Source: Patescibacteria group bacterium (GTDB lineage: Bacteria > Patescibacteriota > UBA1384 > DATEAH01). Taken from it: a DNA stretch of 64,000 nt. The DNA is taken from assembly GCA_035288465.1 (NCBI GenBank), contig DATEAH010000007.1:2090-66089 (forward strand), given 5' to 3'. Shown here piece after piece: positions 3,831 to 60,159 of this stretch; the stretch's first letter is position 1, and every line of letters begins with the position of its first letter. Both the position numbers and the translations under genes were made by a program. Under the pieces are notes generated by a model. The model was given only the letters and a program-made list of their open reading frames with translations, did not search any database and had not been told where the DNA came from.

Positions 3831-4853
3831 ATGAAAGTCCCACGGCCGATCCTCTTTGTCATTATCGGTGTAGTTATAATTGCCGCAACCTTCAGTTTTT
3901 GGTTTTACCAAAAGAAAACTCAGGAACGAATTTGCGAACAAGCTTTGGTCACGAGTTGGTCTTCGGTTATTGGCTTAATGGAAGATATCGGAACCACAAT
4001 TAAGGAAAAAAATCTTGATTTTGCCGATGTTAGCCGATGCTCGAGCGAATGTTACGCCAAACTCAGTGATATGCAAAAAGCAGTGACAGCGCTGGATGAA
4101 ACGGCAAAATTTGCAAAAACCAAATCTGATTTAGTAGGTATAATCCGAGATTCAATGGATTTGATGGAAGATGTTAAGGATTGCTGTGACCAATGGCAGA
4201 CGGCGAATTTTCGAAAATTGGAACTGAAGATCGCTTCAATCAAGCAAGTCGCAGAAAGCACCTTTACAACCTGGCCAACTAGCAGTATGCGCGTCAGGCA
4301 ACCTCAATTAGCATCTCTAAACACTATTCCAACGCAATTTAACAAAATGAGAAACGCCCGCAAACAGACCGCAACTCCTTCCATATTTCCGACTATGATG
4401 TCGATTCCGATTAGCAGAGATTCATTACCAGCCGCGGGTTGGGTTCAGGTAATGACCCCATCTCGTCCAAACTTAGAAGTTTGGTATAGCCCAAACGCAA
4501 ACGATTATTTTCGATCAATGCAATCTTTGCTCAAGGCCTACAAAGGTCTTCGAGGAGACCTCGATGAATATATCGAACGTGCCAAAAAGCAGGGTTGGGT
4601 TTATGGCAGTGCTTATAGCCAATTTTATGATCGTGCTTATGAGTCGCGGCAAAATATTTACAACGCCATGAACGGATTGCCAATTTCTCATGGGTTTGGT
4701 GCTCAGCATCAAGAGGCTTTAAATTGTGTCCTTCGCGGTCTAAATGCGATGGATGCCTTAAAAGCCGGCGATTACTCCACCTTTCATAATCTTTCTACCA
4801 TTAATACTAATGCTTTAAGACGAGTTATGAATGAATATGATCTTAGGGGGTGA
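3831..4853 (+). CDS. Hypothetical membrane-anchored protein (N-terminal TM helix, soluble C-terminal domain)
   Basis: ATG at 3831 preferred over GTG at 3822; hydrophobic N-terminus; stop overlaps the next start (ATGA). Confidence 0.55.
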   Translation: MKVPRPILFVIIGVVIIAATFSFWFYQKKTQERICEQALVTSWSSVIGLMEDIGTTIKEKNLDFADVSRCSSECYAKLSDMQKAVTALDETAKFAKTKSDLVGIIRDSMDLMEDVKDCCDQWQTANFRKLELKIASIKQVAESTFTTWPTSSMRVRQPQLASLNTIPTQFNKMRNARKQTATPSIFPTMMSIPISRDSLPAAGWVQVMTPSRPNLEVWYSPNANDYFRSMQSLLKAYKGLRGDLDEYIERAKKQGWVYGSAYSQFYDRAYESRQNIYNAMNGLPISHGFGAQHQEALNCVLRGLNAMDALKAGDYSTFHNLSTINTNALRRVMNEYDLRG

Positions 4854-44245: not shown

Positions 44246-44322
44246 GCCGCCATCGTCTAGAGGCCTAGGATACCAGGTTTTCATCCTGGAGATCACCGGT
44301 TCGAATCCGGTTGGCGGTGCCA
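44246..44322 (+). tRNA. tRNA-Glu (anticodon TTC), CCA encoded
   Basis: GCCGCCA..TCGTCTAGAGGCCTAGGATACC..TTTTCAT..GGTTCGAATCC..TGGCGGT G CCA; D-arm near-identical to E. coli tRNA-Glu. Confidence 0.9.
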
Positions 44323-44478
44323 AGATAAAACTGTAATCTCCTTGATTACAATTTTATCTTATTGCCACACTGGGTGAGAACCTGTTGGCGAAAAAATTAA
44401 ACAAAAATCAAAGTGAAATATTATACTTTCCGTTCAGTCGTTAGTTGAGTTGTTTTGCGTTGAGACGGGCTTTAGCCC

Positions 44479-44501
44479 TTCGAATCCGGTTGGCGGTGCC
44501 A
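44479..44501 (+). repeat. 23-bp direct repeat of the tRNA-Glu 3' end (att-like scar)
   Basis: TTCGAATCCGGTTGGCGGTGCCA identical to 44300-44322, 156 bp downstream of the intact tRNA. Confidence 0.8.
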
Positions 44502-44685
44502 AAATAGAATTCCAATTCATAATTTATAACTCAGAATTACATTACAGAATCCACAATTCGTAATTTGTCCCGTTAGCTGGCGGGCTTTTTTAATTTGAAA
44601 GCCGTTTACTTTGTTTGCCGCATATGATATATATAGTATAATCTCCGGAATGGTCCGGTCTGGTCATCTGCTAAGGAGGCGCGAG

Positions 44686-46410: not shown

Positions 46411-47220
46411 ATGCCACAATTTAAATTGAAAAATAGACAAACTCAAGTAATTTTGATGATAATCGTCATTGTCGGGGCGGTTTATTTTTTAGTGGCAAAT
46501 CGACCTAAAAATGCGGTTTCGCCGGTGCAACAAGAAAATGACGGTTTAACTAATTTGTTGTCGCCGCGAGAAGAAAAAAAATTAGATAGTAAAAATCAGA
46601 CCAAAACTACTAATACCCAATCTAATACTCAAACTGCGATTAAAGATTCGGTTTTATTGTCAGTGCCTTTTACTTCCCAAGCACCTTTGGTGGTTTGGGA
46701 TGATTTGCATAATGAAGCTTGCGAAGAGGCGTCGGTAATCATGGTGGCTGAATATTTATCAGGTAATCATAATCGTAAATTAGAAGTGAATTTTGCTGAC
46801 CAACAAATTATCAAGATGGTTAATTGGGAAATTAATAAATTGGGTTCACATAAAGATTTAACCGCCGAAGAAACCGTCAGATATTTAGCAATTGGTAATT
46901 TGGGTTATAAAAATGCTCATGTTCATCGTGATTTTTCGATTGATAATATTAAAAGGGAATTATCAGCTGGCAAACCCGTGGTTATCCCGATGGCGGGCAG
47001 GCTTCTCGGAAATCCGAATTTTCGGCAGCCTGGTCCGGTCTATCATATGTTGGTGATTAAGGGTTATAATTCAAAATATTTTATTACCAATGACCCCGGG
47101 ACGCGTAAGGGCGAAAGTTATAAATATTTGTTCTCCACAATTGAAAAAGCCGCCCATAATTGGGCGGGTACTCCTGATAAAATCGAGTCTGGCGCGAAAG
47201 TCTATTTGACTCTAAATTAG
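46411..47220 (+). CDS. Peptidase_C39-like (C39_2) domain protein, membrane-anchored
   Basis: N-terminal TM; QAPLVVWDDLHNEACEEASVIMVAEY with candidate catalytic Cys. Confidence 0.5.
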   Translation: MPQFKLKNRQTQVILMIIVIVGAVYFLVANRPKNAVSPVQQENDGLTNLLSPREEKKLDSKNQTKTTNTQSNTQTAIKDSVLLSVPFTSQAPLVVWDDLHNEACEEASVIMVAEYLSGNHNRKLEVNFADQQIIKMVNWEINKLGSHKDLTAEETVRYLAIGNLGYKNAHVHRDFSIDNIKRELSAGKPVVIPMAGRLLGNPNFRQPGPVYHMLVIKGYNSKYFITNDPGTRKGESYKYLFSTIEKAAHNWAGTPDKIESGAKVYLTLN

Positions 47221-47229
47221 ATTATATCT

Positions 47230-47900
47230 TGAGGTGGGAGATTTATTTTGGAAAGATGGGGCTACGAGGCAGGAAGGAAGAGTTGGTTGGTGTTTCCCCA
47301 GTTTGGGGGAACTAAGTTGGCACCAGCCTGTCTTTCTTCTTCCTGCCTCGCAGTTTTCTATGTGAACCCAACATTAGGTCCTGAGTTTGAGAAATTCTCA
47401 GAACCGGTTGGGGTTGAAGACTGACCAGCAGCGTCCGGGTTTTCTATCCCCGAGTCTTGGCGTCTCAGGCCTCGCTATTCGACGCTGCCGGTCAGATTCT
47501 GAGAGGGTTAGCGGCTGGGATAACCGTGGGGTAGTGTGATTGGACTGCAGACGGGGAACCACCTGAGGCTGTCCCATTTCCAACCCTCTCAAGCTGAAGG
47601 GGGAAAGGTGCGCCAAGATTTCCAGACCAGGATTGCAACCGCTATTTGGGTTCCTTATTCCCCACGAAACTGGCGAAGGCATTTGGTTCTACGCCAGGTC
47701 TTGCACACCATCCGGAGAACTTCATGCCTTCATGACTGTTGGAGAGAGGAGAGTGATACCCAACTGAAGCTGCGAAAGTGATAACCCTTTCCTCTCTTTT
47801 TGGTTCCGTAGTGACGCTCCTTCCTCGCCGTGAGTCTTGAAGCGTCTAAGCTCTTACAGTTCTCCGAACTGTCGCAGCTTAAGAGCTAAGCTATAATATT
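47230..47900 (+). ncRNA. GC-rich (~55%) highly structured noncoding locus of unknown identity; strand not established
   Basis: No credible ORF (track ORFs here are antiparallel overlaps). Long-range stem 47262-47284 / 47335-47355, nested ccccag-ttt-ggggg and ggttggtg/caccagcc helices, several GNRA-type loops, and a 3' hairpin agctcttacagttc...gaactg..taagagct. Confidence 0.4.
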
Positions 47901-47945
47901 GTACCAAATCCTAAAAATTTGTCAAGTCAATATCAAAAAATTGGT

Positions 47946-47975
47946 TTGACAAAAGTGGTTCTTTCTTGTTATAAT
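47946..47975 (+). promoter_or_regulatory. Sigma70-like promoter upstream of rny (TTGACA-18-TATAAT)
   Basis: ttTGACAaaagtggttctttcttgtTATAATtt. Confidence 0.5.
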
Positions 47976-48059
47976 TTAAGCAGATTATAGTAATTTTTTA
48001 TTTAAATTTTGATCCCATAAAAATGGGGAATTGAATTGCGAACATGAGAGGAAAATACA

Positions 48060-49583
48060 ATGAACAATTTGATCTTAGGGTTATTGATCGGCCTGCCGAT
48101 TGCTACTGGCGTGGCCGGATATTTTTTAAGAAAACTAACGGTCCAGAAAATTTTCAAGACTCAAGAAAACAAAGCTTCTAAAATTATTAACGACGCAAAA
48201 AATCAAGAAAAAGAAATTTTGTTAAGCGCCAAAGACGAGGCTCTCAAAATTAAAGAAGAGGCAAAAAAAGAAGCTGACACGAAGCAGAAATACATTTTTG
48301 ATTTGGAAAGAGCTTTACGTTCCAAAGAAGATTTATTGGAAAGAAAATCCCAAAACTTAGAGGATGATAAGGCTAAATTATCAGAAAAAATTTTAGAAGT
48401 GGAAAAATTTAAAGAAGTTTTAAAAAAAGCCAAGGCTGAGCAAATGACCACTTTGGAAAAGATTGCGAAAGTTTCTCAAGATGAAGCAAAAAAAATTTTG
48501 TTAGACTTGGTGGAAAAAGAGTATAAAGATGAATTGGTAGAAAAAATCAAAGAAATGGAGCTTTTCACCAAAGACCAAGCCGAAGACAAAGCCAGGGAAA
48601 TTATTATTACCGCGATTCAAAGATTAGCCTCGGAACAAACCGCAGAAACAACCGTAGCGGCAGTATCAATTCCTTCTGACGAAATGAAAGGCCGCATTAT
48701 TGGTCGCGAAGGCCGCAATGTCCAGACTTTTGAAAAATTAGCCGGCGTCGACGTCATCATCGATGACACTCCGGAAGTAGTGGTGATATCATGTTTTGAT
48801 CCGGTGAGACGGCAAATTGCTCGCATGGCTTTGGAAAAATTAATTGCCGATGGCCGAATTCACCCGACTCGTATTGAAGAAATGATTGAAAAAGCCAAAG
48901 TGGAAATTTCTCAGCAAATCAAAGAAGCCGGTGAGCAAGCAGTTTATGATGTTGGCGTGGCTGGTTTGCATCCGGATTTAGTTAAAATTTTAGGCAGATT
49001 AAAATTCCGCACCTCATACGGCCAAAATGTGTTGATGCATTCGATGGAAACCGCAAATTTAGCGGCCATGATTGCTTCTGAACTTGGTGCAGATGTGAAT
49101 ATGGCAAAAAAAGCGGGCTTATTGCATGATATTGGTAAAGCCGTTGACCACCAAATTGAAGGTTCGCATGCGGTAATTGGGGCTGATATATTGAAAAAAT
49201 ATGGTATCAATCCTGATATTGAAAAAGCAGTTCGAGGCCATCACGAAGACATTGAGCCAACTTTAATGGCAATTATTATTCAAGCCGCAGATGCGATTTC
49301 CGGTTCCAGGCCAGGGGCGCGTAAGGAATCTTTGGACTCTTATATTAAAAGATTGGGTGATTTGGAAAATGTCGCCAATGATTTTGAGGGAGTTGATAAA
49401 TCTTATGCAATTCAGGCTGGTCGTGAGATTCGTGTGATTGTGAAACCTGAAGATATTGATGATTTAGCCTCGGCCAAATTGGCGAAAAATATCGCTCGAA
49501 AAATTGAAAAAGAATTAAAATATCCAGGCCAAATTAAAGTAAATGTGATTAGAGAAACGAGAGCGGTTGATTTTGCAAAATAA
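48060..49583 (+). CDS. rny: Ribonuclease Y
   Basis: N-terminal TM, coiled coil, KH domain ([10 protein letters not shown]) and HD domain ([14 protein letters not shown]). Confidence 0.9.
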
Positions 49584-49600: not shown

Positions 49601-49876
49601 ATGAATAAAAAAGAACTGGTGTCAGAAATTGCCAAAGCCTCGAATCTGAATCGTGGCGAGGTTTTGAAATTATTAAATGAATTTTCTCATACCTTAGCGC
49701 AGACTTTGGCAAAAGGGGAGAAGGTGAGTCTTTCCGGTTTCGGAACTTTTTCTCTATCTAAAAGACAAGCTCGAGTTGGGACGAATCCGAGAAATCCCAA
49801 GGAAAAAATCCAAATTCCGCCTTCGGTGACAGCTCATTTTAAACCATCGCAAACCCTAAAATCGAAAATTAGTTAA
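49601..49876 (+). CDS. hup: DNA-binding protein HU
   Basis: MNKKELVSEIAKASNL..GEKVSLSGFGTFSLSKRQARVGTNPRNPKEKIQIP. Confidence 0.9.
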   Translation: MNKKELVSEIAKASNLNRGEVLKLLNEFSHTLAQTLAKGEKVSLSGFGTFSLSKRQARVGTNPRNPKEKIQIPPSVTAHFKPSQTLKSKIS

Positions 49877-50327
49877 AGTCGCGGAGTTCTCTTCGGGCGT
49901 TTTTAGCGAGATCTCTTTCTTTAAGAATTTGTTTTTTATGATAAGTTTTTAAGCCTCTGGCGAGACCGAGTTCGAGTTTAATACGATTCTTTTTCGAATA
50001 TAATTTTAAGGGCACTAAAGTGAGCCCTTTTTGTAATTTGCCCGCAATTTGTACAATCTCAGCTTTATTTAACAATAATTTTCGAGATCTTTTAGGATCA
50101 AAACTGATTTTAGAATATTTATATGGCGAAACGTGTGTCCCAATTAACCAAATTTCACCGCCTAAAATTTGGGCAAAGGCATCACCCAAATTAACCTGAT
50201 GATTTTTAATCGATTTGGTTTCAGCGCCATTTAAAATTAACCCAGCTTCAATGGTTTCTAAAACCTGATATTTTAGCCGGGCTTTTTTATTAATCGCAAA
50301 AACGCCTGATTTAAATTTTTTATTCAT
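49869..50327 (-). CDS. smpB: SsrA-binding protein SmpB
   Basis: ARLKYQVLETIEAGLIL.G.E.KS typical SmpB; implies a tmRNA elsewhere in the genome. Confidence 0.9.
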   Translation of the reverse strand: MNKKFKSGVFAINKKARLKYQVLETIEAGLILNGAETKSIKNHQVNLGDAFAQILGGEIWLIGTHVSPYKYSKISFDPKRSRKLLLNKAEIVQIAGKLQKGLTLVPLKLYSKKNRIKLELGLARGLKTYHKKQILKERDLAKNARRELRDFN

Positions 50328-52390: not shown

Positions 52391-52462
52391 GCCCCCGTAG
52401 TTCAACGGATAGAACAAGGGACTCCTAAGCCCTAAATAGAAGTTCGACTCTTCTCGGGGGCG
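52391..52462 (+). tRNA. tRNA-Arg (anticodon CCT)
   Basis: GCCCCCG/CGGGGGC acceptor; D-stem GTTC/GAAC; anticodon loop CTCCTAA; T-arm AGAAG-TTCGACT-CTTCT; no encoded CCA. Confidence 0.8.
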
Positions 52463-52474
52463 CAATATTTTTTT

Positions 52475-52546
52475 CGGAGCGTGGCCTAGCGGTAAGGCGC
52501 AGCCTTCGGGAGGCTGAGATCGTGAGTTCGAATCTCACCGCTCCGA
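52475..52546 (+). tRNA. tRNA-Pro (anticodon CGG), C1:G72 as in bacterial tRNA-Pro
   Basis: CGGAGCG/CGCTCCG acceptor; anticodon arm CAGCC-TTCGGGA-GGCTG; T-arm GTGAG-TTCGAAT-CTCAC. Confidence 0.8.
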
Positions 52547-53335
52547 TTATTATTCAGCGCGTCCCGCCAACGGCGGGGAGGCCGTCCCGCCAGGGCGGGA
52601 CCAGCCCGATATTAAAAAAACCTCCTTTTTTGAGAGATTTTTTTAATTATAAAAATTTCTGGTCCCGCATAATCAAAGCACACGGGATAAATGGAGGTGC
52701 CGGAAGTTGCATCCGGGTCCAAAAGTTTTAAAAAATATCTTCTACAAGTTTATTCCAGATAAGTACTTAGGTAATCAGCTTAAATCTGGACTAAAAACTG
52801 AAAACCGCAATCTTTTATTAGCTTAGGTTCGGTAAAAAAGATGATTACCAAACTGCATCCGAAATTATGACACCAGATTTGCAACTTTCGGAAAGCTGCA
52901 AGAGGCGCCCCGTCAAAGGCGGGGATGACAATAGCGGTTAGGCTACTGCCATTTGTAAAGCAGGTTTGTTGCTTGTTTTTTTCTAGTTTTGATTGGGCTA
53001 GAAACCAAACTTGCGACATTTTTCGCAGTCTTTTGTCGAGGCTTGTCACCCCCTTATGGCGTTGGTAGACTGATACGCTACCGACCTCAGACCATTTTCT
53101 TTTTCGGAAAGAAAAAGTCTGACAAAAAGAAAACTTATTCGAAATTCCTATCGTGGCAGAATCATGGAAAGGTTGTTTAACTTTCATGGTCTGATTTACT
53201 GTCATTTTTCTGATCTTAAATCCGAATTTTTAAAGTTCTATCTTAATTTTACCACAAATTTTAATTTTGTCAAGACTGGTGGGCGGTATCCCAATGGTCA
53301 TCGGGATGACCTTCTGCACATTCATTTGATATAAA

Positions 53336-53410
53336 TGGTGCGCGCGGTAGGACTTGGACCTACGACCTTCTCTACGTCAAAGAGACGCTCTACCCCTGAG
53401 CTACGCGCGC
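53336..53410 (-). tRNA. tRNA-Val (anticodon GAC), CCA encoded
   Basis: Reverse complement GCGCGCG TA GCTCAGGGGTAGAGC G TCTCT-TTGACGT-AGAGA ... CGCGCGC A CCA. Confidence 0.8.
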
Positions 53411-59424: not shown

Positions 59425-59453
59425 TTGACAAATCGTGATAAGTTTGGTATAAT
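59425..59453 (+). promoter_or_regulatory. Consensus sigma70 promoter (TTGACA-17-TATAAT)
   Basis: aaacTTGACAaatcgtgataagtttggTATAATaagg directly upstream of the GC-rich small ORFs. Confidence 0.6.
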
Positions 59454-59534
59454 AAGGACATTCCAGCCTTGATTGTTTTGATTCTGCTCACCTCAGGCTT
59501 TGTGCCTGATAATCTCTGTTTAGGGGGGAACGTT

Positions 59535-59747
59535 ATGTCGTTGAAGTTCTGGGCCATCGTGGCTGCGATCATCTCCTTCGGGCTATATGCCTGCGGGAAG
59601 GTCGAAGCCGGAAATGACGTGGCGTCCACCGGTTGGTGGATAGCCTCGACCATCGGTATGGCGATCGCGTTTTTCCTGGCGATTGCCTGCATGTGGCAGC
59701 CGTTCGAGGACATCCCTGACACCGCCGACGACTTTGAGTCGTACTGA
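59535..59747 (+). CDS. Small hydrophobic 2-TM protein (70 aa) in a ~60% GC segment
   Basis: MSLKFWAIVAAIISFGLYACGK...; codon usage and GC unlike the host. Confidence 0.4.
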   Translation: MSLKFWAIVAAIISFGLYACGKVEAGNDVASTGWWIASTIGMAIAFFLAIACMWQPFEDIPDTADDFESY

Positions 59748-59818
59748 CGATTAGGTTTCGCCCCCAGTTTCACCCCGGTTGCGTTTCAGCACCACAAACC
59801 CCAGGAGGAGTCGATCAG

Positions 59819-59992
59819 ATGGGCAAGAAGCAAACGTCTAAAGGACTCTGTTCCGCGATTGTCGGCTCTGCACCGTGCCAGCGAGCTTTCAAGAGCCACA
59901 CCTGCCCGGCACACCCGAGCCGCAAGAATGACAAGACCTGCCTGGGGATCGCGAAGTTCGCGAAGGGTAGCGGACACCGCAAAAAGCGGTGA
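59819..59992 (+). CDS. Small basic Cys-rich peptide (57 aa), GC-rich
   Basis: RBS AGGAGG 10 nt upstream; MGKKQTSKGLCSAIVGSAPCQRAFKSHTCPAHPSRKNDKTCLGIAKFAKGSGHRKKR; the overlapping alternative-frame ORF 59859-60119 runs through the terminator and is considered spurious. Confidence 0.3.
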   Translation: MGKKQTSKGLCSAIVGSAPCQRAFKSHTCPAHPSRKNDKTCLGIAKFAKGSGHRKKR

Positions 59993-60019
59993 CTACCGCG
60001 CCACACCAACCCGACAGCA

Positions 60020-60098
60020 TTCGTTGTTTACCGGCGAGCAAGAGTGGAAAGGGCTTCACCCCTTTCGCAACCCCCACTCCTTGCCCGCCGGTTTCTTT
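60020..60098 (+). terminator. Long GC-rich stem followed by a T-run
   Basis: ccggcgagcaagagtgg...ccactccttgcccgccgg then TTTCTTTTT. Confidence 0.5.
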
Positions 60099-60159
60099 TT
60101 ATCGCCTCGATGGCGATAATCCCGCACTCCTAGCGTTATAATCGGAAAATCTGCGGGAT
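60099..60159 (+). repeat. Conserved two-hairpin element, copy 4 (P1 TTATCGCC-TCGA-TGGCGATAA, perfect)
   Basis: TATCGCCTCGATGGCGATAATCCCGCACTCCTAGCGTTATAATCGGAAAATCTGCGGGATA; lies between the GC-rich cassette and the uvrB stop codon. Confidence 0.75.

Follow-up and report, generated by a model that had tools for sequence, protein, structure and literature searches.

The window analysed here, a stretch of 64,000 nt from contig DATEAH010000007.1 of a Patescibacteria group bacterium, carries a C39_2-family peptidase gene followed by rny, the gene for RNase Y, both on the plus strand and separated by a gap of 839 nt (see the table). This gap houses a block of DNA (47225-47895) which is intergenic, interrupts no gene and stands out by its base composition: its GC content amounts to 0.505-0.58 (200-nt windows over 47300-47799), against 0.30-0.44 in the flanks and 0.382 for the entire window. 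Comparable values are reached elsewhere in the 64 kb only by a cluster of tRNA and tmRNA genes (52.2-52.75 kb) and by one cassette (59.35-60.25 kb). The initial annotation of this DNA had described a GC-rich, extensively base-paired non-coding segment of about 670 nt at this place, and our analysis bears out that description. It had also put forward a divergent RNase P RNA as one possible identity, which we had to abandon. Judging from the sequence, the block is most likely an orphan large structured RNA gene, outside all described RNA families.

Coding capacity, folding and promoter of the block

The block is non-coding. Its longest open reading frame (ORF) has 94 aa, and its period-3 signal-to-noise ratio of 0.79 is at background (95% of shuffles reach ≤1.92), whereas values of 8.8 and 10.0 were obtained for the neighbouring genes and of 3.3 for the GC-rich small-ORF cassette of the same window. 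Codon periodicity is absent from every 300-nt sub-window of the block, and Pfam yields no match among its ORFs. Pipelines of the Joint Genome Institute (JGI) call a 58-aa protein at 47248-47424 (plus strand), across the terminal hairpin of the block. Since its only homologue among 5.8 billion proteins is itself, and given this position, the call is almost certainly spurious, the practical lesson being that gene callers put such 58-aa ORFs into the block. The 96-aa longest open frame had a single match in a search of 1.84 billion representative proteins, a junk tandem-repeat protein. This protein (P0129, 329 aa; E = 1.3e-7 summed over four stretches, 34% identity) comes from a GC-rich source and is the translation of a tandem repeat with units of about 50 aa, and we judged the match to be a compositional or repeat artefact and not a homologue.

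Both strands of the block fold significantly better than shuffled copies, with z-scores of -4.5 to -4.9 for the plus strand and of -4.6 to -7.0 for the minus strand, the latter varying with the shuffle sample. In the controls, coding sequences ranged from -0.3 to -3.4 and the window's own tmRNA gave -5.3; the structure of the block is thus well beyond what composition provides. The folding energy is lower for the plus strand (-262.9 kcal/mol) than for the minus strand (-246.8 kcal/mol), because the former is rich in G+U (0.547). Folded as the minus strand, the block falls into some six stem-loop domains in a row, several of which refold identically when folded alone. In the first domain, to which the inverted repeats I7 and I11 belong, the inner stem ACAGUUC/GAACUGU with its GGA loop has a pair probability of 0.96; in the second, the central hairpin (arms 47675-47693 and 47713-47731, inverted repeat I1) has a probability of 0.92. 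Two pairings already noticed in the initial annotation were recovered with somewhat different borders: at the left end, 47262-47276 and 47339-47353 form a stem (93% complementary) that encloses an inner hairpin, and the long hairpin at the right end was placed at 47846-47890. The inverted-repeat search found in the block neither internal repeat units nor terminal inverted repeats. As a side observation, assemblies from two samples break within the domain 6 hairpin, at 47257-47353 (loci L006/L103 and L007/L102); at each, one contig stops and another starts inside the hairpin with a short overlap, a behaviour for which the inverted repeat is probably responsible.

The strong sigma70 promoter that had been recognized upstream of rny is indeed perfect (12/12). 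Back-to-back with it lies a second promoter (11/12, with an extended -10) which points into the block, from which we place a predicted transcript start near 47891. On the plus strand, the interval from the C39_2 gene to the block has no promoter, and no terminator follows the block. Folding z-scores are more negative for the minus strand both in the window (-6.3 vs -4.5) and in the equivalent blocks of two relatives described below (L094, -5.5 vs -3.9; L096, -12.7 vs -4.4), and single mismatches within helices that yield G-U pairs number 8 on the minus strand vs 3 on the plus strand. Promoter and fold statistics therefore point to a functional strand opposite to the one first analysed. The alternative identity offered initially, a different large structured RNA, holds as far as the sequence allows one to tell, with no family to name it by, but not on the strand then assumed. 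Downstream of the block, the first canonical terminator-like site on the minus strand falls within the C39_2 gene, in its 3' end. A transcript of about 750 nt could terminate there, or the site may be a coincidence; it constitutes weak evidence, because its hairpin is partly set by a conserved protein motif and is also present in relatives that have no block.

Features of the block, its surroundings and the equivalent slot in related genomes (positions refer to the window)
Feature	Position	Strand	Remarks
C39_2-family peptidase gene	46411..47220	+	PF13529, E = 8.9e-13; stop codon marks the slot's left border
Terminator-like site, CCGCCCAAUUAUGGGCGG + CUUUUUCAAU	47141..47167	-	first canonical site downstream of the block; inside the 3' end of the C39_2 gene
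Predicted domain 6, 97-nt 3'-terminal hairpin, purine-rich and pyrimidine-rich arms	47257..47353	-	-45.8 kcal/mol alone; inverted repeats I2 and I9
Predicted domain 5, 46-nt hairpin, inner 9-bp stem GGUUCUGAG/CUCAGGACC	47367..47412	-	pair probability 1.00; same fold alone
Predicted domain 4, 86 nt, 15-bp closing stem CUGACCGGCAGCGUC/GACGCUGCUGGUCAG, two small inner hairpins	47416..47501	-	inverted repeat I3, 15 nt, 93%
Predicted domain 3, 90-nt hairpin, 12-bp closing stem UGAGAGGGUUGG/CUAACCCUCUCA	47502..47591	-	inverted repeat I10, 10 nt, 100% complementary
Predicted domain 2, branched, fold less certain	47604..47829	-	outer helices uncertain
Predicted domain 1, 62-nt 5'-terminal hairpin	47832..47893	-	1-2 nt after predicted start; -20.1 kcal/mol alone, same fold
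Block promoter, TTGACA, 16-nt spacer, TACAAT, TG (extended -10)	47898..47925	-	11/12; back-to-back with the rny promoter
rny promoter, TTGACA, 18-nt spacer, TATAAT	47946..47975	+	12/12; invariant in nine related loci; right border of the slot
rny (RNase Y)	48060..49583	+	divergent from the block
Slot in L094/L093			gap 1155 nt; block of ~735 nt, GC 0.41-0.58 vs genome 0.33
Slot in L096/L097			gap 927 nt; block of ~790 nt, GC 0.50-0.61
Slot in L091/L092		-	136-aa ORF; weaker promoter
Slot in L098			gap 446 nt, AT-rich
Slot in L095, L100, L101, L187			gaps 98-203 nt

RNase P RNA and other known RNA families

At gathering score, the block matches no Rfam 15 family in a search of the whole window. 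With the threshold relaxed to E<=10, over 47000-48100 and over the whole window on both strands, it gives only hairpin noise of the miRNA-precursor type. RNase P RNA had been suspected on account of short stretches resembling its conserved regions, and the models RF00010 and RF00011 find no match at E<=10 in the 1.1-kb stretch. These negative results cover scores down to about 13 bits, and RNase P RNAs of Candidate Phyla Radiation (CPR) bacteria have been reported at scores as low as 5 bits (PMC8172020): 10 of 35 complete CPR genomes needed RF00010 thresholds down to this level, and in many of the RNAs in question helices are lengthened or absent (Lui et al. 2021, PMC8172020). Because of this divergence, the core motifs of RNase P RNA were searched directly. 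With up to 3 mismatches allowed, CR-I (GAGGAAAGTCCGGGC; GAGGAAAGUCCGGGC, the 5' strand of P4) was found nowhere in the window on either strand. For CR-V (ACAGAANCCGGCUUA, the 3' strand of P4), the five matches with 3 mismatches lie elsewhere in the window, at the frequency expected by chance, and the block contains none. The lack of a P4 pairing, conceded from the start, is thereby confirmed. On direct reading, no P12 hairpin follows the CR-II look-alike, and the three stretches turn out to be partial matches only (16/28, about 16/21 and one 8-mer).

An RNase P RNA that has diverged strongly and gained large helix extensions, as found in some CPR genomes, would still have in its favor that such RNAs can escape ordinary thresholds (PMC8172020), that the plus strand carries the look-alikes in the expected order, and that no other RNase P RNA was detected anywhere in the 64-kb window, itself a small part of the genome. 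But the look-alikes lie on the strand devoid of a promoter, the block is, at 670 nt, almost double the usual length, several relatives lack one altogether, and the blocks of the others share no 8-mer with it, whereas RNase P RNAs would share motifs. With neither model match, CR-I, CR-V, P4 or P12, nor a core common to relatives, we reject RNase P RNA, the diverged variant keeping no more than a very small probability. This result removes a false lead.

The other models that had been recommended for checking were run as well, together with those of OLE and raiA, and none identified a family: GOLLD, ROOL, OLE, HEARO, raiA and tmRNA have no Rfam 15 match in the block (window, E<=10) nor in the blocks of L094 and L096. 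Group I and group II introns (RF00028, RF00029, group-II D1-D4), hammerhead, twister and other small ribozymes were rejected likewise, with no match at E<=10. Elsewhere in the window, a cluster of RNA genes occupies 52391-53410 and comprises tRNA-Arg(CCT), tRNA-Pro(CGG), tmRNA (52689-53053, minus strand, 72.6 bits) and tRNA-Val(GAC); smpB lies 3 kb from this cluster, at 49869-50327.

The same slot in related genomes

Exact look-ups of closer Rny and C39_2 proteins returned contigs of the same species and nine relatives at 63-78% identity. The same-species contigs, from about ten samples, are uninformative because their block is 100% identical. The nearest other Rny proteins are 69-78% identical, and the relatives that carry them are about equally distant from each other. 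A scan of GTDB genomes for further Rny relatives yielded no useful neighbour, its matches being mainly Firmicutes at 47-60% identity, and a metagenome scan with an Rny alignment gave relatives at up to 55% identity among the matches listed.

The gene order LPG synthase, (C39_2), gap, rny is kept in relatives. The rny promoter (TTTGACA...TATAATT) is invariant, and similarity ends just upstream of its -35 box. What fills the slot differs from one genome to another (table). In two other genera, it contains a GC-rich, non-coding and strongly folding block of 735-790 nt in the same slot, strand and promoter arrangement. In both, a minus-strand promoter sits at the edge of the block, back-to-back with that of rny (L094, 12/12 with TG; L096, 12/12), and neither block has an Rfam match. 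Read on the minus strand, the L096 block closes with a long hairpin and, after it, a U-run, UUUUCUUUUUU. In the relatives' loci, these equivalent blocks and tRNA/tmRNA genes are the only GC-rich segments. The slot of L091 contains an ORF of 136 aa (4399-4809, minus strand) which is period-3 positive and has no Pfam match; a second segment, at 3965-4222 (minus strand), belongs to the same observation, and minus-strand terminators follow the ORF. The slot can therefore hold protein-coding cargo.

The three blocks resemble each other in general make and not in sequence. Neither blastn (word size 7) nor nhmmer --max gives a match between them; the window block has no 8-mer in common with those of L094 and L096, and 7- to 11-mers are shared at chance level. 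A calibrated covariance model of domains 3-4, the 176 nt whose fold is best defined, has no match in the relatives even with filters switched off. Pairwise alignment scores are at shuffle level except for one, the global score between the window and L094, about 4.5 sd above mononucleotide shuffles. On inspection this alignment is unconvincing, and shared local composition is probably behind the score.

A proposed stand-alone RNA gene and its alternatives

Long GC-rich intergenic regions in AT-rich genomes predict structured RNA genes (PMC11109978, PMC8632094). The block has what generally marks a stand-alone RNA gene: a promoter of its own (11/12 with TG), a fold z-score of -6.3 to -7.0 and no coding capacity. 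With middling confidence, we propose that it is a stand-alone non-coding RNA gene of about 650-750 nt, encoded on the minus strand, divergent from rny and lineage-specific; transcription, its strand, the ends of the RNA and any function are what we infer from these data. Transcription would start near 47891 from the near-consensus extended -10 promoter. The RNA would open with a stable hairpin, fold into about six consecutive stem-loop domains, and end either after the hairpin 47353-47257 or at the terminator-like site 47167-47141. Abundant minus-strand RNA could be produced in this way and be shielded from exonucleases by its end hairpins. It may act via its folded mass and not via conserved nucleotides; binding proteins as a scaffold or decoy would be the most plausible mode. 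A candidate partner would be RNase Y, whose gene is adjacent, divergent and overlapping in its control region, or some other RNA- or duplex-binding protein.

The three genera share this general make without a common sequence or architecture, from which selection on a stable, abundant and base-paired RNA can be suspected. We favor, with moderate confidence, a single RNA gene constrained to a stable fold, diverged past recognition and easily lost, over repeated capture, since three matching independent captures seem unlikely and no signature of mobility was found in the sequences searched. A more daring proposition, to which we would give little credit for now, is that some Patescibacteria reserve the rny-side slot for a large, highly expressed RNA selected only as a stable base-paired molecule, with sequence and helix layout turning over completely between genera.

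Several observations weigh against an RNA gene of this kind. On the minus strand, no U-run or canonical terminator directly follows the domain 6 hairpin. In the window taken alone, the count of helix mismatches is tied 2:2 between strands, and it is the plus strand that has the lower absolute folding energy. Homology of the three blocks is not demonstrable, sequence comparison, k-mers and covariance model being negative. Five relatives have an empty slot, another has a protein gene in it, and even close pairs differ, at 83% Rny identity (block vs none) and at 86% (protein gene vs none); the RNA would therefore be dispensable or often replaced. The nearest relatives' Rny proteins are only 78% identical and all same-species copies are identical, which leaves no alignable homologues for covariation.

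The variable content of the slot among close relatives (empty, protein gene or block) also lends itself to another explanation, that of captured or mobile foreign DNA without a role in the cell, the slot being an insertion hot spot beside a resident outward promoter and the blocks being unrelated foreign or selfish structured elements, transcribed from it by chance. The three blocks have indeed no sequence or modelled structure in common, the GC content of the block is far over the genome mean, a second GC-rich cassette of about 670 nt with a consensus promoter and two small ORFs exists at 59426-60130, and a ComEA-type DNA-uptake gene is nearby. Such a scenario, however, needs three captures, all non-coding, of 670-790 nt, folding strongly, in the same orientation and flush with a perfect promoter. 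Terminal inverted repeats, target duplications and second copies were not found in the 64-kb window and 171 loci, and no integrase, transposase or recombinase gene is adjacent. Searches of the block against phage and plasmid collections (blastn), and of five exact 20-29-mers against viral contigs, gave 0 matches, and unselected sequence would be expected to drift to the AT-rich composition of the genome. We consider foreign DNA fairly unlikely. In several respects the locus does resemble integron-like or hot-spot slots, in its fixed position by an outward promoter and its variable cargo of one orientation (RNA, small protein gene or nothing); it differs from them by having no integrase, no attC-type end motifs (RYYYAAC / GTTRRRY) seen on reading, and a single cargo instead of an array.

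The remaining alternatives keep the block at its place and change what is functional in it. The plus strand could extend the LPG-synthase/C39_2 transcript by a long structured 3' tail, or an RNA could be released from that transcript by processing, as the lower folding energy of this strand, its z-scores of about -4.5 to -4.9 and the lack of a terminator between the C39_2 gene and the block would suggest. Yet this strand has neither a flanking promoter nor a terminator, its energy advantage is explained by its G+U content, the minus strand has the more negative z-score and a consensus promoter in three of three genomes, and the minus-strand terminator of L096 would face the wrong way, so that a plus-strand function appears improbable. 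Significant folding of both strands, as expected of palindromic DNA, and the location between two transcription units could also indicate a palindrome cluster acting at the DNA level, be it a barrier between the operon and rny, a recombination site or a plasmid-derived single-strand origin. The helices are, however, imperfect and branched, a dedicated promoter leads into the block in three genomes, relatives manage without it and no recombinase or replication gene is nearby; such an element is very improbable. Nor is there much room for a small or decayed protein gene. The 59-aa ORF 47577-47398 (minus strand) has GAGG 7 nt before its ATG, a weak ribosome-binding motif, and the 58-aa ORF on the plus strand was called by the JGI annotation; but a 12-bp stem sequesters this putative ribosome-binding site, the residues are rich in Arg, Pro and Ser, as is typical of GC-rich DNA read out of frame, and the lack of periodicity, of Pfam matches and of any protein match beyond the ORF itself and the junk repeat protein makes a gene here scarcely credible.

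Among known systems, the proposed RNA gene comes closest to OLE (about 600 nt), ROOL (about 580 nt) and GOLLD (about 800 nt), with which the block shares the size class of 600-800 nt and dense structure (PMC12286853). They too are stand-alone non-coding transcripts (predicted in the case of the block) with a GC excess in an AT-rich genome, were discovered by the same route, as long GC-rich intergenic regions (PMC11109978), and have neighbours that give no obvious function. They differ from it by long conserved stretches and covarying helices across many species, while the related genera share nothing detectable here, and the block matches none of their Rfam models at E<=10. The usual neighbours, oap genes for OLE and phage or tRNA clusters for ROOL and GOLLD, are not present beside the block. 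RNase P RNA is likewise a GC-rich structured RNA in an AT-rich genome, and the three short stretches resemble its P5-P8 region, CR-II and CR-IV; the block departs from it in motifs, in length and in its lack of conservation among relatives. A strong promoter, a high predicted abundance and a fast turnover of sequence with the fold kept are reminiscent of 6S RNA and of CsrB/RsmZ-type sponges, which would fit a decoy or scaffold role. But the block is three to four times longer than 6S RNA and its predicted fold is not a single rod with a central bubble; GGA motifs are not enriched (about 13 vs about 10 expected from base composition, by manual count), and the covariance model showed no architecture common to the block and those of the relatives.

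Patescibacteria (CPR) have very small genomes and, to our knowledge, almost no regulatory RNAs have been described in them; we found no description in the literature of a large RNA like this one in CPR bacteria. If the proposal is true, some 700 nt and a consensus promoter spent on a non-coding RNA in a minimal genome would probably mean a role that matters, and adjacency to rny provides a concrete candidate for a partner. If the three blocks derive from one evolving gene, this would be one of the rare large RNAs for which only the overall folded state is under constraint. It would then represent a new class of RNA selected for shape or bulk properties, for example a decoy of RNase Y or of another ribonuclease, or an RNA-only assembly.

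Two other regions of the window deserve mention. The cassette at 59426-60130 (plus strand) has a GC content of up to 0.59 and a 12/12-type promoter, TTGACA...TATAAT, at 59426-59454 (direct reading). Its ORFs, each with a ribosome-binding site, encode 70 aa with two hydrophobic stretches (59535-59747) and a basic, Cys-rich product of 57 aa (59819-59992); a hairpin with a T-run is found near 60030-60100. Periodicity is positive, there is no Pfam match and no counterpart in the fetched loci, and the cassette looks like a foreign small-gene cassette.

The block had further been viewed as the distal end of a segment associated with tRNA-Glu (44246-44322). The 3' end of this tRNA gene is repeated 179 nt downstream (44300-44337 / 44479-44516, 87% over 38 nt, the first 24 nt being identical), and the repeat does not reach the block. 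It is an att-like scar left by an earlier integration or excision event. Because this sole tRNA repeat is only 179 nt away, and LPG synthase and C39_2 in between are conserved syntenic genes in relatives, a tRNA-Glu island extending to the block was rejected. In the relative L095, a tRNA-like 5' end, GGCCCTGTCGTCTAGTGGATAGGAC, followed by about 60 GC-rich nt and then by the next tRNA-Glu, lies at 47-130 and may be an intron-containing or disrupted tRNA.

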